41,399 nt of DNA from a virus: positions 1 through 41,399 of the IMG/VR virus record IMGVR_UViG_3300032007_000176; one strand, written 5' to 3'. The notes beneath the pieces are model-generated. The model worked only from the letters and a program-made list of their open reading frames with translations, did no database searches and was not told the DNA's origin. Shown piece by piece: positions 1 to 41,399 of this stretch. A program made the translations under genes and the position numbers. The stretch's first letter is position 1, and every line of letters starts with the position of its first letter.

Positions 1-317
1 TGCCCTGGATGATGTACTTGCCGTCGAACGGGTGCCTGTCGTAGATGCTTGCGGCAATGGCCGTCAGCAGCTTCTGCTCATGCGTCGGGGGCACACCACG
101 AAAAATTCCGTTATCACCACATCTCACCCCATGCTGCTGATTGGCAGCCAGGTGAATGTCTTGCGGCACGATGAGCGCACGCGTCTCGATGCCCTCACCG
201 GCAATGCGGCTCACGATGGCCTCGATGTCCTCCGCGCTGATCCGCTCGCTCGTTTCCACTTGGATGTTGCACTCGCCGTGACCGATGAGCACCTCACAGG
301 CCACCTTCGGGTTGGCT
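1..317. repeat. Terminal direct repeat, copy 1 of 2 (identical to 41083..41399)
   Basis: Bases 1-317 match 41083-41399 letter for letter in the same orientation. The repeat lies inside one gene, so it is most simply the overlap of a circular or concatemeric assembly. Unique length is 41082 bp. Confidence 0.9.
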
Positions 318-472
318 TGCGCCCACCTCTGTCGCCCCTCGGCAGTGCTCAAATCCAATTTGCCATCATTGCTCCATCGGTTCCTGCTCTTTGTGTAGCA
401 GAGGTCAACGATTGCCCCTGCTATCCTGTCCGCCACCTTGTCAGGGTGGCTTGGGTTCACTTTCTCAAACAT
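1..472 (-). CDS. metK: S-adenosylmethionine synthetase (compact MetK-like), N-terminal part of a gene that wraps the window ends
   Basis: Absent from the ORF track because it runs off the window edge. The minus-strand ATG at 472..470 reads MFEKVNPSHPDKVADRIAGAIVDLCY, which contains the (G/S)HPDK N-terminal MetK motif. It is in frame with track ORF 40604..41386, whose first M is really an internal GTG. The joined protein is 316 aa. Confidence 0.8.
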   Translation of the reverse strand, partial: MFEKVNPSHPDKVADRIAGAIVDLCYTKSRNRWSNDGKLDLSTAEGRQRWAQANPKVACEVLIGHGECNIQVETSERISAEDIEAIVSRIAGEGIETRALIVPQDIHLAANQQHGVRCGDNGIFRGVPPTHEQKLLTAIAASIYDRHPFDGKYIIQG

Positions 473-505
473 GATTTTGTCGTTTTATGGGTTTAACTGA
501 ATTTA

Positions 506-1186
506 CTACCGCACATCGTTCTCGATGAAGTCCGACCATTGCACGGCCATTGCATGTGCGATGCCTTGAAACGTCTTCGATGCGTCCTTTGCTGTGTGAG
601 CCACACCGCGTGACCACTTCTGACCCTTCTTGCGCCCTCCCGTGTTCGATGGCAGGAACGTCTGATGGTCTCCGCAGAAGAGTGTCGGCATGAGTGGCGG
701 CAGGTTCTTCAGCCAAAGGTAGGTAGCCTTGCTGAATGGGTCGCCAAACTCATACGGCTGTACGATGGTGGATGGTTTCGGCAGTCCGACGATGGCAAGC
801 GGTCGGGGGTTCTCGATGGCGATGTACTTGCACTTGGCATCGTGCATCTTGAAGAAAAACGCCTTGGCTTCCATTGCCAGTTTCAAACGTTCCTCTGACA
901 GCTGCCCTGCTTTCGGGTACATCCATCGTGCGCCAGCCTTCGACATGTAGGTGCAAGGCGGGTGTGCCACAAGCAGCTGCCACTCGCCCTGCTGTCGGTG
1001 CCGCTTTCCGTCTTGCGTCGTAAATTCGCAGTCGCCATTCAGCAACGGCAAGCAATCGCCCACGACGTGCCATTCAGGATGACCGCCGCTGCATTCTTGC
1101 AAGTCGGCAGAGAAGGCTCGGTGTCCGAGTGCTCGGAATGCCTTGCAAACCGTCTGGCTTTCCTCGCAGGCTATCAGTACGTTCAT
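506..1186 (-). CDS. DNA (cytosine-5)-methyltransferase, compact phage type
   Basis: 226-aa ORF. It has a catalytic Pro-Cys motif (LLVAHPPCTYMS) and an ENV-like motif (YIAIENPRP). The N-terminal VLIACEESQTV...GH and C-terminal QPYEFGDPFSKATYLWLKNLPPL layout resembles small phage C5-MTases. Confidence 0.75.
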   Translation of the reverse strand: MNVLIACEESQTVCKAFRALGHRAFSADLQECSGGHPEWHVVGDCLPLLNGDCEFTTQDGKRHRQQGEWQLLVAHPPCTYMSKAGARWMYPKAGQLSEERLKLAMEAKAFFFKMHDAKCKYIAIENPRPLAIVGLPKPSTIVQPYEFGDPFSKATYLWLKNLPPLMPTLFCGDHQTFLPSNTGGRKKGQKWSRGVAHTAKDASKTFQGIAHAMAVQWSDFIENDVR

Positions 1187-1188
1187 AA

Positions 1189-1286
1189 ATCTTACATCTT
1201 ACATCTTACATCATACTTGCGCCAATGGGCGCACCAGTCCCCACTCCGCGAACTTCTCGAATCCGCCGAGGGTGTGGATGTAGAGC
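1189..1286. repeat. 98-bp direct repeat, copy A (partner at 40027..40124)
   Basis: Hand alignment gives 95/98 identical bases in the same orientation. The repeat covers the heptamer array, a stop codon and the last 24 codons of a MetK-like C terminus (LYIHTLGGFEKFAEWGLVRPLAQV). Confidence 0.9.
1191..1211 (-). repeat. Heptamer array (ATGTAAG)x3 on the coding strand, site A
   Basis: The plus strand reads cttacat three times in tandem. The array fills the gap between the stop of ORF 1211..1351 and the ATG of the methyltransferase. Confidence 0.9.
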
Positions 1287-1351
1287 ACCGGCGTATCCAG
1301 CTGACTCAGCAGATACTCCTCCATTGTCTGTTGTTCTTCTTGCTTTGCCAT
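1211..1351 (-). CDS. 46-aa chimeric small ORF: unique N terminus plus a MetK-tail remnant
   Basis: Below the track size cut-off. Reads MAKQEEQQTMEEYLLSQLDTPVLYIHTLGGFEKFAEWGLVRPLAQV. The last 24 aa are encoded by repeat copy A. Whether it is expressed is uncertain. Confidence 0.35.
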   Translation of the reverse strand: MAKQEEQQTMEEYLLSQLDTPVLYIHTLGGFEKFAEWGLVRPLAQV

Positions 1352-1394
1352 AGGTCTATTCTTTACTAACATTTCCGAAATTCTTTGCTAAGAA

Positions 1395-3344
1395 TCATTC
1401 TGCCACTTGGCCTTCACTCAGGTCGAAGCAATACAGTGCATCGAAGAGGGCGTGGATGCAATCGACCTTTTGCGTCTGGGTGGTCTTCATCACCTTTCGC
1501 AAGCCGCTTCCGGGTGATTCTTCTATCTTGCAATTTCCGAACATCCACGGCCAAAGGGGACTTTCGCTAAGTTCGAGCCACGGCGCTGGTTCTTGTGTGA
1601 GCAGCATGTGCTCCACCTCGTCCACCAGTCCGTTCATCGTTAGAAACGTCTGCGGGACGCTCACAACGCTGCTGGTGAGTGTCTTCTTGTCGTAACCGAG
1701 CGTCTGTAGCCAAGCCTTCAGCTCGTTTATTGGATTCTTCGACTGAGCTGGGTCGTAGCCAAACATGTAGAGGTTGAGCCGCTCGGCCTTGCTCATGATG
1801 TCGGCTATTGCGTAGCTCGATTCCATGACTTCGCCTTCCACCACGTGCAACCACCCTTGTGCCTCCCACTGCTCGAACAGCTCGCGGTGTGGCGAGGCGT
1901 TCAGAGCCGCACGTGTTATCCATGCTTCGGTGTCGGCGAAGAAGCGGCCTTCGGCGGTAGGTGCGAAGTAGTTCACGCCGAGGTAGCTGACGCCGAAGAG
2001 GTCGTTCGTGCCGCCAAAATCGAGACCTACGAAGATGCGCTTCCACCCCTCCTCGTATCGGCAGTCGGTGATGCGTCGCGGACGCTGATTCGGCCGCACT
2101 TGGTCGGCCTTCAGCCAAGTAGTGACGCGGCCACTCTGATAGACGTTGAAGAGCTTGCTCACCACCTCGTTCATCTTCTCGGGATTCTGCCGTGCCTTGG
2201 CAATCTCATCGTCGTAGAACGAGTGTTGCACGATGATGCCAAGCATCGGGTTCACCTTACGCCGCACCAGCTTCGACGTCAGCAGCGTCTCGGTGTCCTG
2301 CTGTTCCCACTCGTCGGGCTCCAGCAGAAGGCACATCTGTCGGTCTGTGCTCAGCTCGTGCACTGCCTCGGGGTCTGCCTCGCGTTCGAGCTGTATCTTC
2401 ATGCCGGCCAACTTATCAATAAATGGCCCTTGCGTAATGATGCCGGCGGTGGTAGAGATGAAGGTCATAGGCTCACGTCGCGGACCCATACTTGACTCCA
2501 CCACGCTCACCAGCTTACCCATGTCGCTGGCACCGTTCACGTAGGCCGCGCTTCCGTACTCGTCAGCCGAACACAGCTGCGCAAAGAGTCCGTCCTTCGT
2601 CTTGCCTCCGGCAGAGAGTGCCGTGAGCGATGCCGTGCGGAATTGCCCCGGCTTCCAATTTACTTGCGACGCTGTGAAGCGGATGCGCTTCTCGCGCGGG
2701 TCCATCTGGTGGATGAGCTCGCGGGTACGGCTGAAGAGTATCTTTGCCTGGTCGCTGGCGTTGGCGCAGCAGTAGCATTCAGCGTTCTCATCGCCGCTCA
2801 TAAAGTACCAGAACTGAATGAAGGCCGAGAGTTGCGTCTTCGCCGTTTTACGCGGCGTGAAGAATGTGAACTCCGTGCACAGCCGCCGCAGGTCGTAGAT
2901 GTAGCCGTCAGGCTCTGGGCGTTCTGTCCGCAGCATTCCGCGGCTGCCGATTTCGTTCTCGGTATTTATCCACGCTTTCAATAAAAACATGGAGGCAAGC
3001 ACGAACACTTGGAATGGTTGGAGTCGGTAGTGCATCGGCCCCGTGGTGCCTGGGTGTTTCAAGCCGCCCTCCACGTGTTGCCACATGTCATTGGTGAGTT
3101 GCCAGCGGCCCTCGTACTTGAACACCACGTCGCGGAATGTCTCGATGTCCAGCTCGTAGGTGTGCAGCAGCCGAAGCAGCTTCAAGGCGCTCAGCAGCTC
3201 GTAGGCGTTGTGCGCCTCCGGCTCTTCGATGAGACGCGCGTAGTAGAGCGAAAGCCGCGGCTCAATTCCTACCACGTCTATATGCTTCGTTGCGTAGCGC
3301 TCGGCCAAAAGTTCGTGAATGCGTTGTTTGTCTTTCTCTGTCAT
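1395..3344 (-). CDS. terL: Terminase large subunit
   Basis: 649 aa. Walker A-like FFTPRKTAKTQL, Walker B-like LCSADEYGS and a C-terminal nuclease-sized domain. It sits directly after a small terminase gene. Confidence 0.9.
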   Translation of the reverse strand: MTEKDKQRIHELLAERYATKHIDVVGIEPRLSLYYARLIEEPEAHNAYELLSALKLLRLLHTYELDIETFRDVVFKYEGRWQLTNDMWQHVEGGLKHPGTTGPMHYRLQPFQVFVLASMFLLKAWINTENEIGSRGMLRTERPEPDGYIYDLRRLCTEFTFFTPRKTAKTQLSAFIQFWYFMSGDENAECYCCANASDQAKILFSRTRELIHQMDPREKRIRFTASQVNWKPGQFRTASLTALSAGGKTKDGLFAQLCSADEYGSAAYVNGASDMGKLVSVVESSMGPRREPMTFISTTAGIITQGPFIDKLAGMKIQLEREADPEAVHELSTDRQMCLLLEPDEWEQQDTETLLTSKLVRRKVNPMLGIIVQHSFYDDEIAKARQNPEKMNEVVSKLFNVYQSGRVTTWLKADQVRPNQRPRRITDCRYEEGWKRIFVGLDFGGTNDLFGVSYLGVNYFAPTAEGRFFADTEAWITRAALNASPHRELFEQWEAQGWLHVVEGEVMESSYAIADIMSKAERLNLYMFGYDPAQSKNPINELKAWLQTLGYDKKTLTSSVVSVPQTFLTMNGLVDEVEHMLLTQEPAPWLELSESPLWPWMFGNCKIEESPGSGLRKVMKTTQTQKVDCIHALFDALYCFDLSEGQVAE

Positions 3345-3724
3345 AGCTTTTTCTTGTAGTATTCAAGCATCGGGTCGTTATCTGCCACCTTGTCCACTGG
3401 CTCCGTCTTCACTGCTGCCTTTGCCGCAGTCAGTCCGAGCATCTTGGCGTACTGCTGACAGATGGCCTCCTGCTGGTATAGCAAATTGCACAGCGGGTTC
3501 TGCTTCCATGACGGTATGCCATTTGTCAGTCCTGGTTGCATGACCATCGGCTCCTTGATGACCTTCTCGCGGTACACGTCGCGCAGTTCCAACGCCGTCG
3601 CATAGTTGCGAATGGTCAGTTCCAATTCCTTCGGCACTTCGCCGTTGTGTCCAGCCCGCACCTGCGAACGAATCTCCGTCAAATATCCTTTTGCTTTCAT
3701 GTCTTTTTGATTTTCGTTGTCCAC
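3341..3724 (-). CDS. terS: Terminase small subunit (P27-like)
   Basis: 127 aa. The YATALELRD...NPLCNLLYQQEAICQQYAKMLGLTAAKAAV layout resembles P27-family small terminases. It overlaps the terL start by 4 nt. Confidence 0.7.
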   Translation of the reverse strand: MDNENQKDMKAKGYLTEIRSQVRAGHNGEVPKELELTIRNYATALELRDVYREKVIKEPMVMQPGLTNGIPSWKQNPLCNLLYQQEAICQQYAKMLGLTAAKAAVKTEPVDKVADNDPMLEYYKKKL

Positions 3725-5208: not shown

Positions 5209-5380
5209 AATTCTTTTTTCTTTTAAGTGGTAATTTGTCTTTTGCATAGCCAACAGCCTCAAAGGTGGTGGCCTCATTCCCATTCATATTTGTGTAATCC
5301 GTTGGGAAAAAGTACCCTCCCTGAAAGTTCAGATTTTAACTCTAACCTTCGGCTGAGTGGATTTCGGAGTCGTTCGCCCT

Positions 5381-11675: not shown

Positions 11676-11759
11676 TGGCGAAATTGGGCGAAATCGGTGT
11701 ATTTTAGCTATTTTGTTTTACCTATGTTTTCCCCTTCGAAAAGAGGGGAAAACAAAAAA

Positions 11760-12926
11760 ATGAAGATTATGACAACAGTGAACATTGTTTATGACCGCAA
11801 AAACCTGCGCAGAGAGCTGGCTCCCATTGAGATTCGCATCACGCACGAGCGGCGCTCCTTATATATAAATACAGGCGTGCGCGTGCGGCGCGAGCAATTC
11901 GCCTACGACCGCATCGTAAACCACCCGCAGGCGGAGGAACTGAACGAGCGCATCAATATATTGCTGCAACGCACCATCGAGGCCGTGAATGCACGATTGA
12001 AAGACAAACGGGAAATAAGTGTTTCTGAAATAAAAAGGGAAATAGAGAACGGCACTTCGAACAGCGTGCTGGCGTGGATCAAGACGGAAGCCAAGCAAAT
12101 CAACATCAAGCCAGGCACGGCGAAGCATTACGTGACGTTGCAGACGCGGCTGGATGAATTCGGCGGCATTCAAACGTGGCAGGACGTGACGGTGGCGAAC
12201 ATCTACGCATTCGACGCATGGCTGCGTGAGCTTCCCGGCAAGCGCACGAAGATGAGCGAGGCGGGCCGCTACAATTACCACAAGTGTCTTCGCTCGCTGC
12301 TGAATCGCGCAGTCAAGATGGAGCTGCTGACAGCCAACCCCTACGCAAAGATGCGCGGGGAAATCGGGAAAGGCGAGCGGGAAAACATGGAATATCTCGC
12401 GGACACAGAAATCGAGAAGCTGCTGAAGTTCTCGCCGTGCGAAGGCTCTGAGCTGGCTCACGCCCGAGACCTGTTCGTCTTCCAGATGTACACTGGCCTC
12501 TCGTACTCAGACGCGCAGGCATTCGACTTTTCGGCCTACAAGAAGGTGCGCGGCACTTACCGACTGACAGCCGAACGCATAAAGACGGGCGTGCCTTTCG
12601 TCTCGCAGTTGTTGCCTCCGGCGGTGGAAATTTTGGAAAAATACGGCTGGCGGGTGCCACGAATGAGCAACCAAGCGTACAACCGCGCGCTGAAGCAGGT
12701 GGCCACAGCTGCCGGCCTTTCGGTGCGCCTGCACTCGCATCTTGCACGTCACACGTTTGCCACATACATGCTCAGCAACGGCGTGGCCATCGAGAACCTC
12801 TCGAAGATGCTCGGGCACACTAACATCACACGCACCCAGCGTTACGCCAAGGTGCTGGCCGAGTCGGTGCACAGCGACTTCGAGATGATTGCAAGGAAAA
12901 TGAAAAAGAAAAACGCGAAAGCCTAA
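11760..12926 (+). CDS. int: Tyrosine recombinase / phage integrase
   Basis: The track ORF is trimmed to MKIMTTVNIVYD. The C-terminal catalytic region LHSHLARHTFATYML...LGHTNITRTQRYAKV supplies the HxxR and Tyr motifs. Size and N-terminal arm-binding layout match Bacteroidota phage and ICE integrases. Confidence 0.9.
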   Translation: MKIMTTVNIVYDRKNLRRELAPIEIRITHERRSLYINTGVRVRREQFAYDRIVNHPQAEELNERINILLQRTIEAVNARLKDKREISVSEIKREIENGTSNSVLAWIKTEAKQINIKPGTAKHYVTLQTRLDEFGGIQTWQDVTVANIYAFDAWLRELPGKRTKMSEAGRYNYHKCLRSLLNRAVKMELLTANPYAKMRGEIGKGERENMEYLADTEIEKLLKFSPCEGSELAHARDLFVFQMYTGLSYSDAQAFDFSAYKKVRGTYRLTAERIKTGVPFVSQLLPPAVEILEKYGWRVPRMSNQAYNRALKQVATAAGLSVRLHSHLARHTFATYMLSNGVAIENLSKMLGHTNITRTQRYAKVLAESVHSDFEMIARKMKKKNAKA

Positions 12927-27330: not shown

Positions 27331-27583
27331 CTCCACCTTCAGGTATAGGAGGCTCTTCCGGCTCCGGCTCGATAGCCCTCAGTCGCTCAATTTCTGCGTT
27401 GGCCGCATTGATGTCGTCGCGCCACTGCTGACGCTCGGCTATCTTGTCGGCATATTCCGTCTTGGTGGCCTTACCTTCCGCAATCTTGGCGGCGATATAA
27501 TCGGTGGATGACAGTTTGCCCTCGCGGTCGAGGATGATACTCTCCTGGGCGTTGATAGCCTCGTTGATTTCTGCTTGTTTCAT
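27326..27583 (-). CDS. Hypothetical coiled-coil protein
   Basis: 85-aa ORF that overlaps the RT stop by 4 nt. Confidence 0.5.
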   Translation of the reverse strand: MKQAEINEAINAQESIILDREGKLSSTDYIAAKIAEGKATKTEYADKIAERQQWRDDINAANAEIERLRAIEPEPEEPPIPEGGE

Positions 27584-28815
27584 ATTCGCTTCAATTTTAG
27601 TTTGTACTTCTTACATAATCTCTGGCGAAATGTGTGCTGGGGTTTACTGACGACGCATTGACGGCGGGTGTCCCAGTCCAACCACTGCCACCAATCATCA
27701 GCGATAGTGTCTTTCAGTTGCATGATACGCTTGTATGATGTGCGGTTCTTCAGTAGTCCTGTGTATGAGTTTACGGTCGAAATAAAACGGTCGAGTTCTC
27801 TGTATTTCTCGACCGTTGTCAGTTGGTTGTATTCTTTTATTCTCGCCAAACATCGTGCCCACGTTACATCATTCAATATCACGCTCCAGGGATGGATGTG
27901 CGAGCCGAGAAATTCCAGTCCCTTCCAGTGTTGCTGACAATAGAATTTCTTATCATTCATCCTTACGCCTTTTACAGCCAGTCTTCTGCGCAGTTCAGGC
28001 AACAGACTGAGTGCATAAGGCTTCAATCTATCGGGTACCACCATCACGCCATCGTCCATGAATACCGTGGTACGGATACCGCAATCTTCGTTGAGCCAAA
28101 TAACTTCGTCATTAATGTATAGACCCATGCCTGTTTGCGATGACATACGACCAATCGGCACACCTACGCCATCGGGTTTGTTCAGAATAGACTTTTCGGG
28201 TTTGATATGCGCATCCCAAAGATACTTGGGTGTGCGCCTCTCATAGTGCTTTGCAGGGTAACAATGAATTGCTATCATTGCCAGCCATTTCAGGAACGCC
28301 GGCATGAATACTCCATATTTTTCGGCTATCTCATCATGGAAGCGGTCTATCACGCGAATGAAGCACGACTCCATATAGTCGCAGTCGGCATTCGGGAAGA
28401 ATCCCGCCAAGTCCCACTTGATAATCCATGTCGTTTCGGTGTAGCCGTTGCTCACCTCGCAGATGTCTTCTATCACCTGGTTAATAGCTGCCTGCGAACC
28501 CATACCCTCGCGGTTGTTGAAGGTGCGCGGGTGTAGCGTCTGTTCTATCCACGGCTTCAGAATGTCACAAAGGATATGGTCAATCATACGACCGGCGAAC
28601 TCAGTGGCGAATATCTCGCGCCACTTAGGAATGGAAACGAGGAAGGTGTAGTTGTGGAGTATGCGGAACGTCCTTGCATTGAGCTCGCGCATCAAGCGAA
28701 CAAGTAGTGGTGGCCAGTTCATCTCAAAGGCCATCGAATCACGCCCGTAACGCTTGTTTTTCCGCGTGGAAAACATCACGCTGAGCAACAGCGCGAAGAA
28801 CAAAACCTCAGTCAT
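27580..28815 (-). CDS. DGR reverse transcriptase
   Basis: IPKWREIFATEFAGRMIDHIL, the PIGRMSSQ (IGxxxSQ) motif typical of DGR RTs, and an FMDD catalytic box. The gene starts 23 nt after the TR. The exact start Met is uncertain. Confidence 0.9.
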   Translation of the reverse strand: MTEVLFFALLLSVMFSTRKNKRYGRDSMAFEMNWPPLLVRLMRELNARTFRILHNYTFLVSIPKWREIFATEFAGRMIDHILCDILKPWIEQTLHPRTFNNREGMGSQAAINQVIEDICEVSNGYTETTWIIKWDLAGFFPNADCDYMESCFIRVIDRFHDEIAEKYGVFMPAFLKWLAMIAIHCYPAKHYERRTPKYLWDAHIKPEKSILNKPDGVGVPIGRMSSQTGMGLYINDEVIWLNEDCGIRTTVFMDDGVMVVPDRLKPYALSLLPELRRRLAVKGVRMNDKKFYCQQHWKGLEFLGSHIHPWSVILNDVTWARCLARIKEYNQLTTVEKYRELDRFISTVNSYTGLLKNRTSYKRIMQLKDTIADDWWQWLDWDTRRQCVVSKPQHTFRQRLCKKYKLKLKRI

Positions 28816-28837
28816 AAAAGTAAAAGCTAAATATCGA

Positions 28838-28964
28838 TAAAATCGCGACCGCCTGACAACGATTCGTGTTGTTGATGTTGTTGTTGTTGAGATTGCCGTT
28901 GTTGCCGTTGAAATTCCACGCGTTGTTGACGTTGTACCTCTGAGCGAACCAACGGTTCGTGCTG
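28838..28964 (-). repeat. DGR template repeat (TR)
   Basis: It aligns without gaps to 29545-29671 over 127 bp. All 27 differences fall at TR adenines on the coding strand. In the VR frame it encodes about 16 AAY codons. Confidence 0.9.
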
Positions 28965-29046
28965 GTCGGAGTCACATCTGATGCTGCTATACATGATAGC
29001 CGGGCTCCCTTTTACCTTATTCATATCTGACAGCCACCTCTTGTCA

Positions 29047-29460
29047 TTACTGACCGACCTGCGGCTGATCCTGACGTTTAAGCGACCGGCTCGCATTTCT
29101 CCATTTCCTTACACCTTCCTCGACACGTTCCAACTGCACGGCGATACGCAGTTTATCGCTATCAGTCAGCAGTCCCTGCGCGATACACAATTCAAAGTTA
29201 GCTAACAATATACCGAACTCACCTATCATCTCACGGATGTGTTCCTGCCTCGCCTCCTGGCATTCCTTGGCGATAGAGAAATGTCGGATGATATTCTGTA
29301 CCGCCCGCTTCATCTCTACCGGTGCGCCTTCGATGCGTTCTATCTTCGGCATCCGTTGGATGGCGGGATGTAATATATAAAGCAAGTTCTTTGCGTCAGC
29401 GAGAATGGAGTCCTTGTCATTCTTCGCCTTGTTGCCGCGCGGTTTCTTGTGTTCATTCAT
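29047..29460 (-). CDS. avd: Avd-like DGR accessory protein
   Basis: Trimmed to MNEHKKPRGNK. 137 aa, basic and predicted helical. It sits between the target gene and the TR. Confidence 0.7.
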   Translation of the reverse strand: MNEHKKPRGNKAKNDKDSILADAKNLLYILHPAIQRMPKIERIEGAPVEMKRAVQNIIRHFSIAKECQEARQEHIREMIGEFGILLANFELCIAQGLLTDSDKLRIAVQLERVEEGVRKWRNASRSLKRQDQPQVGQ

Positions 29461-29491
29461 TGTTCTAAAGAAGGATAGATTGATAGTAAGC

Positions 29492-29520
29492 CTCACGCCA
29501 CGCTGTCGCGATGGCGTGAG
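29492..29520 (-). promoter_or_regulatory. Hairpin/cruciform immediately 3' of the VR
   Basis: A perfect 9-bp inverted repeat (CTCACGCCA with TGGCGTGAG) and an 11-nt loop. It starts 13 nt after the target stop codon. No U-tract follows and there is no counterpart after the TR. Confidence 0.55.
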
Positions 29521-29532
29521 AGCATTTAGTTT

Positions 29533-30852
29533 CTAATCAATTTCTAAAAGCGCGACCGCCCGACAACGAAACGTGCCGGAGATGTAGCTGGTGCTGAGAG
29601 AGCCGTAGGAGCCGCGGAAAAACCACGCGGCGTAGACGGTGGACCTCTGAGCGAACCAACGGTACGTGCTGTTGTTCACTGCGGTAGTTCCCATCTTACT
29701 GATACTTGGCGCAAGGGCAGTGAGGGTTTCATCCTTCATCAGCATGGTGCCCTCGGCGACGCCTGGCAGATACCAGTCACCAAAGTCGAGACCATCCACA
29801 CCGAACGACTTGGTGTAGCCGTAATAGAGTGCTGGGTACTTGTACTTCGTGCCGCCTGCCTTAGTGGGAGCCGTCATGCGGGCATATTTCTCAGCCATAG
29901 CCTTGCCGCTGGGCAGTGAGAAGCATCCATACTTCTGAGGATATACCACCATGTAACACTTCTCCAGATATTCCTCGTAGGTGGCATAAGCAGCACGCAG
30001 GTTGGCGCAGAACTCGCTTGTCTCGAACTCTGACGGCTTCACGGGCACATCATTACCGGCACGTGGACCTACGGGTTCTTGCGCTGTTGGCACACGACCG
30101 CTACCTGTAGCCCATGCCTTGGTTCTGGCGATGTTCATCACACCCCAGTAGTTGGTGTAGCAGCCTCGCTCGCCGCGCCAGTACGTCGAATTTTCTGGCA
30201 TGTCACCCCATGTGATATGAGCGATAGTGCAACCTGTTGCGCTGACAATATAGAAGCGATAGTCAACACACTGATCACACTGGATGATAATCTGAGTACC
30301 GTCACTCTCCACTTTGTTTCCGTTGGCATCAGCCAGATATGCCCACCATGCCTTTATGTCGCCTACCTGCGTGGCCTTCGCAGCAACAGCGGCTGAAATT
30401 TCAGCAGCGCTTGTGGCGTTGATGGCAGCTGACGTCAGTGTTACATCTACGGTGGTATCTACGGCATAGTCAGGAGACATACGCAACTTAATAGCCAGTG
30501 TGGTGCTGCTGATAGCAGTAATGGCATACTGACAAACGTCGAGCCACTTCTGGTCGGCACCATCCTTGTGGATAATACCCACCTGTCGACCCTTACGGAA
30601 ATAGACATAACCGACGTGCGTCCATGCAGCGGGGATGTTTGCCTTCTGAATCCACACACCACCCTTCACGTAGATGATCTTGTTCTGGTCGTCAAGGAAC
30701 ACCACATCGCCAACGGTAGGCTGTGTGGTAACGACATTCACACCGTCCACGATGATTTCGCGGGTTGTCTCAATCATGCTCACCTGACTCTCGGTGATGG
30801 GCTTCACGGCTGCATCGTAGTCAGCCTTGCTGTTGTATGATTTGATAGCCAT
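29533..30852 (-). CDS. DGR target protein, putative receptor-binding tail protein
   Basis: 439 aa. The C-terminal ~42 codons are the VR (...STYRWFAQRSTVYAAWFFRGSYGSLSTSYISGTFRCRAVALLEID). The gene directly follows two fibre-like genes. Confidence 0.85.
   Translation of the reverse strand: MAIKSYNSKADYDAAVKPITESQVSMIETTREIIVDGVNVVTTQPTVGDVVFLDDQNKIIYVKGGVWIQKANIPAAWTHVGYVYFRKGRQVGIIHKDGADQKWLDVCQYAITAISSTTLAIKLRMSPDYAVDTTVDVTLTSAAINATSAAEISAAVAAKATQVGDIKAWWAYLADANGNKVESDGTQIIIQCDQCVDYRFYIVSATGCTIAHITWGDMPENSTYWRGERGCYTNYWGVMNIARTKAWATGSGRVPTAQEPVGPRAGNDVPVKPSEFETSEFCANLRAAYATYEEYLEKCYMVVYPQKYGCFSLPSGKAMAEKYARMTAPTKAGGTKYKYPALYYGYTKSFGVDGLDFGDWYLPGVAEGTMLMKDETLTALAPSISKMGTTAVNNSTYRWFAQRSTVYAAWFFRGSYGSLSTSYISGTFRCRAVALLEID
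29545..29671 (-). repeat. DGR variable repeat (VR)
   Basis: See the TR entry. The VR lies inside the 3' end of ORF 29533..30852. Confidence 0.9.
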
Positions 30853-38223: not shown

Positions 38224-38256
38224 CAAAACGAAGAGAGCCGACACCCGTCAGCCCTC
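38224..38256 (-). terminator. Intrinsic terminator abutting heptamer array C
   Basis: The minus strand reads GAGGGCUGAC-GGGU-GUCGGCUCUC (10 bp including 2 G-U pairs) followed by UUCGUUUUG. Confidence 0.55.
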
Positions 38257-38283
38257 TTACATCTTACATCTTACATCTTACAT
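38256..38283 (-). repeat. Heptamer array (ATGTAAG)x4, site C
   Basis: The plus strand reads cttacat four times in tandem. The array begins 8 nt after the stop of the HU-like gene. Confidence 0.9.
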
Positions 38284-38291
38284 CCCGAAGG

Positions 38292-39760: not shown

Positions 39761-40024
39761 TTATTCGTATTGCTTAATCAGTCTTTGTAACTCTTGCACC
39801 CGATTCGACGTGATTGCTTGCACGAACTTGATGATTTCGTTTGGGTCGTCGTCAGGTCGGATGCGGTACTCTTCGGCAGTCCCGTCCATGAACTCAATGC
39901 GCAAACAGCCCTGCTTGAATGGCTTACTCTGCATCTTATCCATGAGGTTGGCGTGCCGTTGCATTTCCTCGACGTGCATCCGTCTGAGGAATGGCGGTAT
40001 CTCTTTTCTCTCTTCGTCAGTCAT
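39761..40024 (-). CDS. Hypothetical protein
   Basis: The track ORF is trimmed to MTDEERKEIPP. The first six track codons are the heptamer array itself. Confidence 0.5.
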   Translation of the reverse strand: MTDEERKEIPPFLRRMHVEEMQRHANLMDKMQSKPFKQGCLRIEFMDGTAEEYRIRPDDDPNEIIKFVQAITSNRVQELQRLIKQYE

Positions 40025-40026
40025 AC

Positions 40027-40124
40027 ATCTTACATCTTCCATCTTACATCATACTTGCGCCAATGGGCGCACCAGTCCCCACTCAGCGAACTTCTCGAAG
40101 CCGCCGAGGGTGTGGATGTAGAGC
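40027..40124. repeat. 98-bp direct repeat, copy B (partner at 1189..1286); includes heptamer array site B
   Basis: 95 of 98 bases match copy A. The array at 40022-40049 reads catacat, cttacat, cttccat, cttacat. Confidence 0.9.
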
Positions 40125-40234
40125 CTTGCCTGTTCCACGATGTCCTTATACGGGATGCCGTTCACGGTTTCATCACCGATGGAACACGATGCGGTCACCT
40201 GATGACCCGTGCGGATGCTCTCCAAGTAGCACCT
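40049..40234 (-). pseudogene. Remnant 3' end of a second metK-like gene
   Basis: A 61-codon open frame with no ATG reads ...IRTGHQVTASCSIGDETVNGIPYKDIVEQARLYIHTLGGFEKFAEWGLVRPLAQV. It parallels the intact MetK C terminus ...VQSGQTVTACCSIGDEHVTFQ...FADVVEMARLYILTDCNGSFETFSEWGLIRPKE. Confidence 0.6.
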
Positions 40235-40239
40235 TTAGA

Positions 40240-40260
40240 GTCCCCCGCAAATCGGGGGAC
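40240..40260. other. GC hairpin
   Basis: GTCCCCCG-caaat-CGGGGGAC, a perfect 8-bp stem with no flanking U-tract. It lies between ORF 40278..40574 and the metK remnant. Confidence 0.5.
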
Positions 40261-40277
40261 GGCTATAATGCAGGGGG

Positions 40278-40574
40278 CTAAAGTTCGATGTATTCGTGAT
40301 TAGAAATCCATTCCTGCGCCTTGGTCGTTGACTTAAAACGCTTTTGAATCTCATGCCGTTTTCCGTTGCATGTGACAACGACAAAGAAGTGTCCTTTCTC
40401 CAATTTCTTGATTTCGGCACTTTCGACCTTCATGCCTTTTGGCTTTGTCACAACCTTAACGGGTTCAACTACTGGAGCAGGCTTTGGAGCCGGTGCTGGT
40501 TTTGACTTGTACGATGCAACGTACTTTCTTGCTTCCGCTAACTTTGCGTCGGCCTTTCTCATTGATTTCTTCAT
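40278..40574 (-). CDS. Hypothetical basic protein
   Basis: 98-aa ORF with a Lys/Pro-rich N half. Confidence 0.5.
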   Translation of the reverse strand: MKKSMRKADAKLAEARKYVASYKSKPAPAPKPAPVVEPVKVVTKPKGMKVESAEIKKLEKGHFFVVVTCNGKRHEIQKRFKSTTKAQEWISNHEYIEL

Positions 40575-40603: not shown

Positions 40604-41399
40604 TTATTCTTTCGGTCTAATTAAGCCCCATTCGCTGAAGGTTTCAAACGAGCCGTTGCAATCGGTCAAAATGTAAAGTCTTGCCATTTCCACCACGTCG
40701 GCAAACGTCTCGGTCTCGGTCTTGCCGCTGGCATATTGGAACGTCACATGTTCGTCACCAATCGAACAGCAAGCCGTCACCGTCTGCCCAGATTGCACAG
40801 CCTTCAGGAATGCGACGATATTGATAGAAACATCTCCCTTTGAGAGATCCTTTCCCATCAAGCCACCTCCTGTTACTCCCTCGCCAAGGTCGCTTCCAAG
40901 TTTCCTGTTAGTCGCTCCGCTGTCCGTGTTCGGTCCGCCCGTCCACTCGCCCAGGGGATTGATGATGGGCAGGTGGATGCCGTAGGCGTTCTTCAGATGC
41001 TCACGCAGTTCCGGTTCCTGCTCACGGCTCAGATGGCTTTGGCAGATGGTGACGTCGAACTCCGGCGCAGCCAGTCGGCCTTTGCCCTGGATGATGTACT
41101 TGCCGTCGAACGGGTGCCTGTCGTAGATGCTTGCGGCAATGGCCGTCAGCAGCTTCTGCTCATGCGTCGGGGGCACACCACGAAAAATTCCGTTATCACC
41201 ACATCTCACCCCATGCTGCTGATTGGCAGCCAGGTGAATGTCTTGCGGCACGATGAGCGCACGCGTCTCGATGCCCTCACCGGCAATGCGGCTCACGATG
41301 GCCTCGATGTCCTCCGCGCTGATCCGCTCGCTCGTTTCCACTTGGATGTTGCACTCGCCGTGACCGATGAGCACCTCACAGGCCACCTTCGGGTTGGCT
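40604..41399 (-). CDS. metK: S-adenosylmethionine synthetase (compact MetK-like), C-terminal part, continuing into 472..1
   Basis: INPLGEWTGGPNTDSGATNRKLGSDLGEGVTGGGLMGKDLSKGDVS parallels E. coli MetK [30 protein letters not shown]...GGGAFSGKDPSKVDRS. Confidence 0.8.
   Translation of the reverse strand, partial: ANPKVACEVLIGHGECNIQVETSERISAEDIEAIVSRIAGEGIETRALIVPQDIHLAANQQHGVRCGDNGIFRGVPPTHEQKLLTAIAASIYDRHPFDGKYIIQGKGRLAAPEFDVTICQSHLSREQEPELREHLKNAYGIHLPIINPLGEWTGGPNTDSGATNRKLGSDLGEGVTGGGLMGKDLSKGDVSINIVAFLKAVQSGQTVTACCSIGDEHVTFQYASGKTETETFADVVEMARLYILTDCNGSFETFSEWGLIRPKE
41083..41399. repeat. Terminal direct repeat, copy 2 of 2
   Basis: Identical to 1..317. Confidence 0.9.

Follow-up and report, generated by a model that had tools for sequence, protein, structure and literature searches.

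A short MetK-like gene and a C5-methyltransferase-like gene at a variable locus behind the terminase genes of a temperate phage genome

The locus

IMG/VR virus record IMGVR_UViG_3300032007_000176 comprises 41,399 nucleotides (nt) that were analysed at full length (the window). It encodes a compact protein resembling S-adenosylmethionine (SAM) synthetase, designated MetK-like, and next to it a protein of 226 amino acids (aa) resembling C5-specific DNA methyltransferases (MTases), designated MTase-like. Viral metK genes with intact motifs and their co-occurrence with dcm have already been published, and both gene families are large and already annotated. Added here are statistics on gene neighbours, the insight that both genes were combined in a chance-like manner at a variable slot, and recombination scars.

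The ends of the window share an exact 317-nt direct repeat (left copy 1-317, right copy 41083-41399). Therefore, the window represents a circular or terminally redundant phage genome of 41,082 nt. The repeat falls within the MetK-like coding sequence. This is compatible with circular assembly or circular permutation of the genome, but not with a fixed physical end. Two related contigs, L004 and L005, also break off within ~1.3 kb behind metK. Possibly, assemblies are interrupted by the repeated 3' ends of metK and by heptamers (see below), which would explain these contig ends.

Nearly all genes of the window are located on the minus strand. The order on the coding strand is small terminase subunit (TerS), large terminase subunit (TerL), a 53-codon open reading frame (ORF), the MTase-like gene (506-1186, read from 1186 to 506), a 33-nt spacer, the MetK-like gene and a 98-codon ORF. 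The MetK-like gene (951 nt, 316 aa) crosses the junction: It runs from 472 to 1 and continues from 41082 to 40604. Its 5' part (1-472, minus strand) comprises codons 1-157 with the start codon at 472-470 and matches the family hidden Markov model (HMM) with an E-value of 1.4e-81. The 3' part (40604-41399, minus strand; 41083-41399 duplicate 1-317) ends with the stop codon at 40604-40606 and matches with E 2.3e-160. The full 316-aa protein was obtained because the window was joined through the 317-nt terminal repeat. Translation of the joined sequence showed that both genes and all motifs quoted in the initial annotation are real. The span 1-1186 proposed there for the pair contains the whole MTase-like gene but only the first 157 MetK-like codons (472 to 1), while the remainder is found at 41082-40604. 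Similarly, the distance of 33 nt (473-505) was correct, but the gene order was reversed: The MTase-like gene is the upstream one on the coding strand.

The spacer that separates the stop codon of the MTase-like gene from the start codon of the MetK-like gene (473-505, minus strand) is A-rich and free of a Shine-Dalgarno sequence, which would fit a Bacteroidota host. Its final ~17-23 nt accompany the metK gene in relatives, with homology to L169, L171, L172 and L173 beginning at 486-495.

The MetK-like protein

The MetK-like protein contains the motifs SHPDK (residues 8-12), VACE (57-60), GGPNTDSGATNRK (206-218) and GGGLMGKDLSKGDVS (229-243). When PDB sequences were searched with phmmer, solved methionine adenosyltransferases (MATs) were the 45 best of 53 matches (best E 1.8e-6), and the alignments covered the HPDK helix as well as the loops GGPxxDxGxTxRK and GGxxxGKDxxKxDxS. 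Using hhalign, the family profile was aligned with residues 8-276 of E. coli MetK (probability 96.1%, E 3.2e-9, 216 aligned columns). According to this sequence evidence, the protein is homologous to MATs. In PHROGs, it corresponds to phrog_1569 (E 8.3e-54), labelled 'unknown function', and other database sources designate family members, including a 260-aa form, S-adenosylmethionine synthetase. Among phage records, 25 matches with 44-51% identity were found, and in 24 cases the alignment extended over at least 80% of the protein. Altogether, the databases contain more than 8000 homologues, and at least 570 IMG/VR loci encode one.

In an alignment of 34 family members with 56-98% identity, the motifs HPDK (9-12), acE (58-60), vET (72-74), GDnG (119-122) and DgK (150-152) are invariant. 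The same holds for W204, D211, RK (217-218), GKD (234-236), K239 and D241. The only exception is D11, which is conserved in at least 90% of the sequences. Position for position, H15, D17 and K18 of E. coli MetK (numbering includes Met1) correspond to H9, D11 and K12 of the MetK-like protein, E43 to E60, E56 to E73, Q99 to Q104, D119 to D120, D164 and K166 to D150 and K152, F231 to W204, D239 to D211, R245 and K246 to R217 and K218, K266 and D267 to K235 and D236, K270 to K239, and D272 to D241. These E. coli residues have catalytic and substrate-binding roles. According to the alignment, the MetK-like protein retains all residues known for binding of ATP/triphosphate, Mg2+/K+ and methionine. 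The initial annotation had considered a loss of key substrate-binding residues; in a proper alignment, all of them are kept and, with the exception of D11, invariant. Furthermore, they match the eight substrate-binding motifs listed for viral MetK by Kieft et al. (bioRxiv 10.1101/2021.01.05.425418).

With its 316 aa, the protein falls 68 aa short of E. coli MetK (384 aa), in agreement with the ~70 aa estimated initially, and shares ~27% identity with it. Typical members of the family (mini-MetK) are even smaller: With ~260 aa, they are ~125 aa shorter than the E. coli enzyme. The losses are peripheral and affect all three MAT domains, at E. coli residues ~75-95 and ~125-160 and in the C-terminal tail. 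In addition, an insert of 23 aa (SRNRWSNDGKLDLSTAEGRQRWAQA) follows the first helix (residues 29-51; window ~320-388, minus strand). It is missing from the relatives P0104, P0112 and P0012, which are 88-90% identical, whereas the closest MetK alleles, judged by their lengths of 318-320 aa, probably carry it as well. The insert is predicted to lengthen helix 1 and to add a short helix.

Compared with six alleles, the ratio of nonsynonymous to synonymous substitution rates (dN/dS) of the MetK-like gene is 0.11-0.17. This means, the gene is under purifying selection. Motif conservation together with selection makes it probable that the MetK-like protein is an active SAM synthetase.

Several results speak against this assignment. 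The protein scores below the Pfam cut-off for PF00438 (31.4 vs. 33.1 bits), the central and C-terminal MAT domains of Pfam (PF02772 and PF02773) were not matched, and with TIGR01034 only 33.8 bits were reached vs. a cut-off of 309.4. The AlphaFold2 (AF2) monomer, computed from the 34-sequence alignment enriched with the 260-aa subfamily, is poor (predicted local distance difference test, pLDDT, 57.9; predicted template modelling score, pTM, 0.49). Its secondary structure displays three helix/strand repeats. In a Foldseek search of the PDB, the top 50 matches of this model were all MATs, but the template modelling (TM) score was ~0.27 and the root mean square deviation ~18-19 Å. Hence, the structure prediction suggested in the initial annotation led back to MATs, but at a pLDDT of 57.9 the active site could not be mapped in three dimensions. 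Literature searches for the biochemistry of phage-encoded MetK proteins yielded genomic surveys and one genetic study, and no biochemical work.

The methyltransferase-like protein

The MTase-like gene encodes a stand-alone protein belonging to phrog_757 (E 2.2e-49), a family labelled 'DNA methyltransferase' in PHROGs. It contains HPPCTY at residues 75-80, with C78 as the predicted catalytic cysteine of motif IV, and IENP at 124-127 with E125, corresponding to motif VI (ENV). Both motifs are invariant in an alignment of 47 sequences, and PPC, ENP and most other motif residues are conserved to at least 90% across 84 representatives (38-57% identity). By hhalign, motifs IV to VI are placed on FPCQ and EN of bona fide C5 MTases with normal spacing. 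The AF2 model is considerably better than that of the MetK-like protein (pLDDT 82.9, pTM 0.81). In the PDB, Foldseek retrieved 48 matches with E <= 0.001 (best 1.5e-5), and the matches listed are all C5 DNA MTases, among them DNMT3A/3B, DNMT1, M.HaeIII and the MTase of prophage CP-933R. The matches in BFVD are viral cytosine methylases. The protein is therefore predicted to have the fold of a C5-MTase catalytic domain.

More than 8000 homologues of the MTase-like protein were found in the databases, and dN/dS of its gene is 0.15-0.20. Since both families comprise more than 8000 homologues and dN/dS is low, neither the MetK-like nor the MTase-like gene is a chance ORF. The MTase-like family is present in 160 phage records, where it is usually annotated as DNA (cytosine) methyltransferase. 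These include P-SSP7 gp12 and proteins of Pelagibacter, Cellulophaga, Flavobacterium, Vibrio and Acinetobacter phages.

A number of findings complicate the assignment as a DNA C5 methylase. Neither the protein nor the profiles of 47 and 84 members found a sequence match in Pfam, NCBIfam or the PDB; only two of the 84 representatives touched PF00145, the better one with E 0.0031. The same hhalign comparison with two bona fide C5 MTases that aligned the motifs reached a probability of only ~1%. The TM-scores of the Foldseek matches are modest (0.39-0.49, i.e. <0.5). Above all, the canonical motif I (FxGxG) is absent: The N-terminal strand and loop read VLIACEESQ instead of forming a glycine-rich loop. 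Across the family, ACEESQ replaces motif I, with C7, E8, S10 and Q11 conserved. According to our reading of the alignment, the acidic residues D28 and D44 may occupy the expected positions of the adenosine-binding motifs II and III. The region of the target-recognition domain (residues ~128-200) is short and partly modelled with low confidence (pLDDT 52-69 at 171-210). An experimental test of the activity of the phrog_757 family was not found in the literature.

A sequence bridge from the MTase-like family to PF00145 could not be built. A search with the family profile yielded 5026 clusters at 50% identity, and the best 150 of these 5026 all belong to the same short family. Pfam, NCBIfam, phmmer, searches of the PDB with two family profiles and hhalign gave no significant link between the 226-aa protein and C5 MTases, so that fold search and motifs are the only connection. 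Because motif I and a PF00145 match are lacking, 'C5-MTase' is a label that we infer from fold and motifs. The small C5-MTase of the initial annotation is thus confirmed with respect to fold, PPC and ENP, but not with respect to FxGxG and PF00145. With these reservations, we lean towards a SAM-dependent DNA C5 methylase.

Two further observations concern the family. One of the aligned representatives carries a fused PAPS-reductase-like domain (PF01507, E 8.5e-15), which hints that some members act in larger DNA-modification pathways. At L006/L007 (GCA_045531735.1, a 293-kb contig), an MTase-like gene is located upstream of a canonical C5 methylase (PF00145), at a distance of ~2 kb. Therefore, both kinds of C5-fold enzymes can coexist in one genome. 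The same region encodes ThyX, a dUTPase/DCD-like gene and a sigma factor.

Gene neighbours of mini-MetK and conservation of the pair

Gene neighbours were determined for 80 IMG/VR loci with a MetK-like gene, for 80 loci with an MTase-like gene and for an independent set of contigs from bacteria and metagenome-assembled genomes (MAGs). In raw counts, the IMG/VR loci had a DNA methylase directly downstream of mini-MetK in 31 of 72 cases, namely 30 ParB_N-N6/N4 methylases and one Dam. On the bacterial and MAG contigs, a ParB_N-N6/N4 methylase occupied this position in 32 of 60 cases. The upstream neighbour in IMG/VR was TerS (37/74), a methylase (11/74) or a radical SAM gene (1/74, to which L169 and L171 are added). 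Annotated phages with mini-MetK beside a methylase comprise Gardnerella vB_Gva_AB1, Javan105 and NatCom_21982. In NatCom_21982, a radical SAM gene follows the methylase, and L001 has the order MetK-like, DNA MTase and radical SAM. In phages, mini-MetK genes are thus strongly associated with DNA methylases and other SAM users.

The particular combination found in the window does not share this conservation. The 226-aa MTase family was present in none of the 80 MetK-like loci, and within 4 kb, a MetK-like gene was encoded in none of the 80 MTase-like loci, not even in L089 with its 95% identical MTase. Close relatives could likewise be ruled out as carriers of a conserved pair, since the closest alleles of each of the two genes have other neighbours. 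Upstream of metK alleles with 94% nt identity, a radical SAM gene (258 aa; L169:1640-2416 and L171:1706-2482), ADPrib_exo_Tox (196 aa, L172:2249-2839), behind a ParB_N-DUF4417 protein, or an N6_N4 methylase (248 aa, L173:1518-2264) was found. The L172 enzyme is an ADP-ribosyltransferase dependent on nicotinamide adenine dinucleotide (NAD) rather than a SAM user. The 212-aa gene of L004 and the 283-aa gene of L005 upstream of metK were checked as candidates for diverged MTase copies and are not such copies.

The DNA homology between metK alleles begins 14-23 nt ahead of the start codon and stops near the stop codon, whereas the homology of the MTase gene with L089 (93.5% nt identity) is confined to 1186-505. 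Because DNA homology ends at the gene borders, each gene is a separate mosaic module. The MTase-like and MetK-like genes are therefore two independently mobile neighbours and not a fixed or co-evolved cassette. The pair is chance-like and represents one among many gene combinations that can replace each other at a metK locus prone to recombination, and its adjacency in the window could be incidental. These results, i.e. the absence of the pair from both sets of 80 loci, the other neighbours of close alleles and the NAD-dependent enzyme, argue against functional coupling of the two genes, and they do not support the methylation cassette postulated in the initial annotation as a fixed unit. From the link between SAM synthetase and methylase assumed there, the general part persists, as mini-MetK genes often adjoin DNA methylases, but this does not extend to a conservation of the particular pair. 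Upstream of metK, there is a variable slot that mostly holds SAM-dependent enzymes. Possibly, it holds anti-defence genes.

metK remnants and heptamer arrays

A 104-nt direct repeat, designated R (1183-1286 and 40021-40124; 96% identity), brackets the block of the MTase-like gene, the MetK-like gene and the 98-codon ORF. Copy A (1183-1286, minus strand) is located directly upstream of the MTase-like start and consists of the last 24 codons of a foreign metK allele (...LYIHTLGGFEKFAEWGLVRPLAQV*) and an ATGTAAG array. Copy B (40021-40124, minus strand) is located at the end of a metK remnant downstream of the 98-codon ORF. Copy A is 95% identical to the 3' end of intact metK in L169/L171. The remnant downstream comprises 58 C-terminal codons of a second metK allele (40049-40225, minus strand) and matches profile positions 225-292 of 293 in the MetK-family HMM (E 3.5e-20). 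The 53-codon ORF between TerL and the MTase-like gene (1211-1372, minus strand) is chimeric: The final 24 codons represent the remnant of a metK C-terminus (E 5e-6, positions 267-292), and its N-terminal part (1365 to 1286) matches a 67-aa ORF of the relatives L004/L005 (ORF67). The 98-aa ORF itself (40278-40574, minus strand), located between the MetK-like gene and the metK remnant, belongs to no significant family.

The metK remnants at R indicate that the locus formerly held at least one other metK allele. Judged by copy A, the MTase-like gene would once have been located directly downstream of a metK 3' end. This former adjacency modestly strengthens the functional link between both genes, and at the same time it shows that the region is fluid. 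Recombination between the copies of R would delete the whole block.

The heptamer ATGTAAG forms tandem intergenic arrays of two to five copies at 1190-1211, 38256-38283 and 40022-40049 (all minus strand). In the window, eight pattern matches were counted vs. zero expected. Arrays in relatives were detected at L005:6964-6984, L169:3433-3446 and 5220-5254, and L171:3493-3506. Among 1.9 Mb of loci, they are confined to the close relatives of this phage, and they are located at mosaic junctions. Each unit combines a start with a stop codon, and three units provide a stop in every frame. The array at 38284 and those in relatives are followed by a hairpin (AGGGCTGACGGGTGTCGGCTCT) and a T-run. The arrays may serve as terminator, insulator or recombination boundary. 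Between the 98-codon ORF and the metK remnant, a perfect GC-rich 8-bp hairpin was found at 40241-40261 (minus strand; GTCCCCCG-ATTTG-CGGGGGAC). It has no T-run and was not called by the terminator scan, and it may be a module end or a terminator.

Proposed mechanism and alternative explanations

The following mechanism is proposed. Two single-gene mosaic modules directly after the terminase genes would be transcribed together with these genes from the same strand. In the infected or lysogenic cell, the MetK-like protein would act as a small MAT (mini-MAT) that makes SAM from ATP and methionine. This SAM would sustain the SAM-consuming enzymes of the phage, here the cytosine-methylase-like protein. 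The latter would methylate the phage DNA at about the time when it is packaged and thereby protect it from restriction in the next host. For the mechanism as a whole, from co-transcription to restriction protection, we consider the chances slightly better than even, and self-supplied SAM is plausible as a general theme. The initial annotation had also thought of host defences that deplete SAM; we know of none.

From TerL to the MetK stop, scans for sigma-70 promoters and intrinsic terminators detected no site resembling either of them on the minus strand, and a search for the Bacteroides-type promoter pattern yielded nothing useful around the pair. Because the sigma-70 scan does not model Bacteroidota promoters, we can only infer that the pair is co-transcribed with the terminase genes, which is a further weakness of the proposal.

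The strongest competitor regards both genes as independent morons in a hypervariable slot. The mini-MAT would then be a general auxiliary metabolic gene, not specifically tied to the neighbouring methylase, that alters SAM-dependent physiology of the host, lysogens included, for instance polyamines, quorum signals or the cell surface. This view is compatible with the absence of the pair from all 160 related loci, with the four different genes (one encoding an NAD-dependent enzyme) that precede near-identical metK alleles, and with DNA homology that ends at gene borders. In Streptococcus agalactiae, a prophage MetK alters host aggregation and glycocalyx (PMC8223999), and Kieft et al. class metK as an organosulfur auxiliary gene. 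Nevertheless, about half of the mini-MetK genes directly precede a DNA methylase in two independent samples, and radical SAM neighbours occur as well, which would hardly be expected if there were no link to SAM consumption. In addition, the metK remnant in copy A upstream of the MTase-like gene suggests an earlier metK adjacency. On balance, we regard independent morons as possible but rather doubtful.

Alternatively, the 226-aa protein might not be a SAM-dependent DNA 5-methylcytosine (5mC) methylase. It might use another substrate (RNA or a nucleotide) or another cofactor, or form a different C5 adduct, and the mini-MAT may supply a special cofactor. The family-wide replacement of FxGxG by ACEESQ, the missing PF00145 match, the short target-recognition region modelled with low confidence (pLDDT 52-69, residues 171-210) and the fusion of one family member to a PAPS-reductase-like domain are in line with such an activity. 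However, the MetK-like protein keeps all methionine- and ATP-binding residues, which argues for ordinary SAM as product. Furthermore, the MTase-like protein has only DNA cytosine MTases among its best structural matches, and the standard spacing of its PC and ENV-type motifs is in accordance with classic C5 chemistry. Consequently, a non-5mC activity seems unlikely.

Similarly speculative, and in our opinion improbable, is a model in which the metK locus of this phage group is a dedicated exchange site. There, a conserved mini-MAT would anchor the slot, and SAM-dependent or other DNA-modifying or anti-defence enzymes would be swapped by recombination at ATGTAAG arrays and metK 3' ends, while the ACEESQ enzyme would perhaps use a local cofactor for a non-5mC cytosine modification.

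That the MetK-like protein is catalytically dead and acts by binding, either in hetero-oligomers with host MetK or by SAM sequestration, is very improbable. In favour of this view, the protein is 68 aa (typical members ~125 aa) shorter than E. coli MetK, scores below family cut-offs and has a poorly predicted monomer, and the SAMase of phage T3 is known to act partly via heteropolymers with MetK. On the other hand, catalytic residues that are invariant across a family of thousands under purifying selection would be unexpected for a pure binder.

Comparison with known systems

Two surveys and one genetic study provide the closest precedents for the proposed SAM supply. Kieft et al. (bioRxiv 10.1101/2021.01.05.425418) describe viral metK with intact motifs, dN/dS <1, expression and co-occurrence with dcm. 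De Jonge et al. (PMC11283538) report that 58.9% of the Heliusvirales genomes have K00789 (metK) and 67% have K00558. Both surveys interpret the gene in terms of sulfur and methionine metabolism, and in the passages covered, neighbour statistics, mosaic single-gene exchange and metK remnants are not reported. The MetK of the S. agalactiae prophage 12/111phiA is truncated by 135 aa and retains the catalytic part; deletion and complementation of its gene revealed a phenotype in host aggregation and glycocalyx (PMC8223999).

MetK proteins of Streptococcus Javan prophages share 44-49% full-length identity and the same motif set with the MetK-like protein, and their genes are found in a packaging-gene neighbourhood, too. 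In contrast to their ~260 aa, the window protein has 316 aa, and it carries a 23-aa insert and extra central and C-terminal segments. Furthermore, Streptococcus metK is located between TerS and a ParB-N6/N4 methylase, whereas the MetK-like gene follows TerL and the C5-like MTase, and the likely host of the window phage belongs to Bacteroidota. E. coli MetK is homologous, and its catalytic and substrate-binding residues are conserved position for position in the window protein. The latter, however, is only ~27% identical, has scattered deletions and scores under the TIGR01034 and Pfam cut-offs.

In the common phage arrangement, mini-MetK is followed by a ParB_N-N6/N4 methylase. As in the window, a SAM synthetase-like gene adjoins a methylase near the terminase genes. 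In the window, however, the methylase is of the C5-like phrog_757 type and located upstream, a combination present in 0/160 related loci. Other phrog_757 proteins, such as gp12 of Prochlorococcus phage P-SSP7 and those of Acinetobacter phage Ab105-2phi and Pelagibacter phage HTVC111P, share 30-50% full-length identity and are stand-alone proteins of ~200-230 aa as well. In contrast to the window, none of the 80 sampled phrog_757 loci has a MetK-like gene within 4 kb. The SAM lyase (SAMase) of phage T3 is another example of a phage that interferes with the SAM pool of its host, in connection with restriction-modification and bacteriophage exclusion (BREX). It destroys SAM and inhibits MetK, whereas the window phage would make SAM, and the proteins are unrelated.

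Further features of the genome and the probable host

The terminase genes upstream of the pair encode TerL (1395-3344, minus strand; phrog_9, E 1e-72; PF20441 and PF03354) and TerS (3341-3724, minus strand). The latter matches phrog_83 with E 0.001 and PF05119 with E 5.8e-5 and 23.9 bits, just below the cut-off of 24.7. Further genes code for an integrase, a primase, an HNH endonuclease, portal and major head proteins, a collagen-like tail fibre and a reverse transcriptase. The tyrosine integrase gene (11697-12926; phrog_1, E 2e-37) is among the few on the plus strand, and its presence characterizes the phage as temperate. The window is the complete genome of a temperate tailed phage. A diversity-generating retroelement is located at 27580-30852 (minus strand). 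It is composed of the reverse transcriptase gene (27580-28815; phrog_1423, E 4e-38), a template repeat (28838-28964) and a variable repeat (29545-29671), the latter located at the 3' end of a gene for a 439-aa protein (29533-30852). Within the 127-nt repeat, 27 of 27 differences are found at template adenines.

The closest genome match of the MetK-like protein is encoded by a Prevotellaceae MAG (79% identity), and the names of related contigs start with STEW19, which we take to designate rumen metagenomes. The host is probably a rumen member of the Prevotellaceae.

Conclusions and perspectives

The biology of the window is ordinary: A known viral auxiliary gene is located beside a common orphan methylase-like gene of phages in a mosaic region. 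The neighbour statistics, with about half of the mini-MetK genes followed by a ParB-N6/N4 methylase and others accompanied by radical SAM genes, provide a firmer genomic basis for the methyl-donor hypothesis. If active, the mini-MAT would be among the smallest natural SAM synthetases, and it would be useful for defining a minimal MAT core and for enzyme engineering. In this case, many phages would secure their own methyl donor for DNA modification, the opposite of the SAM destruction by T3.

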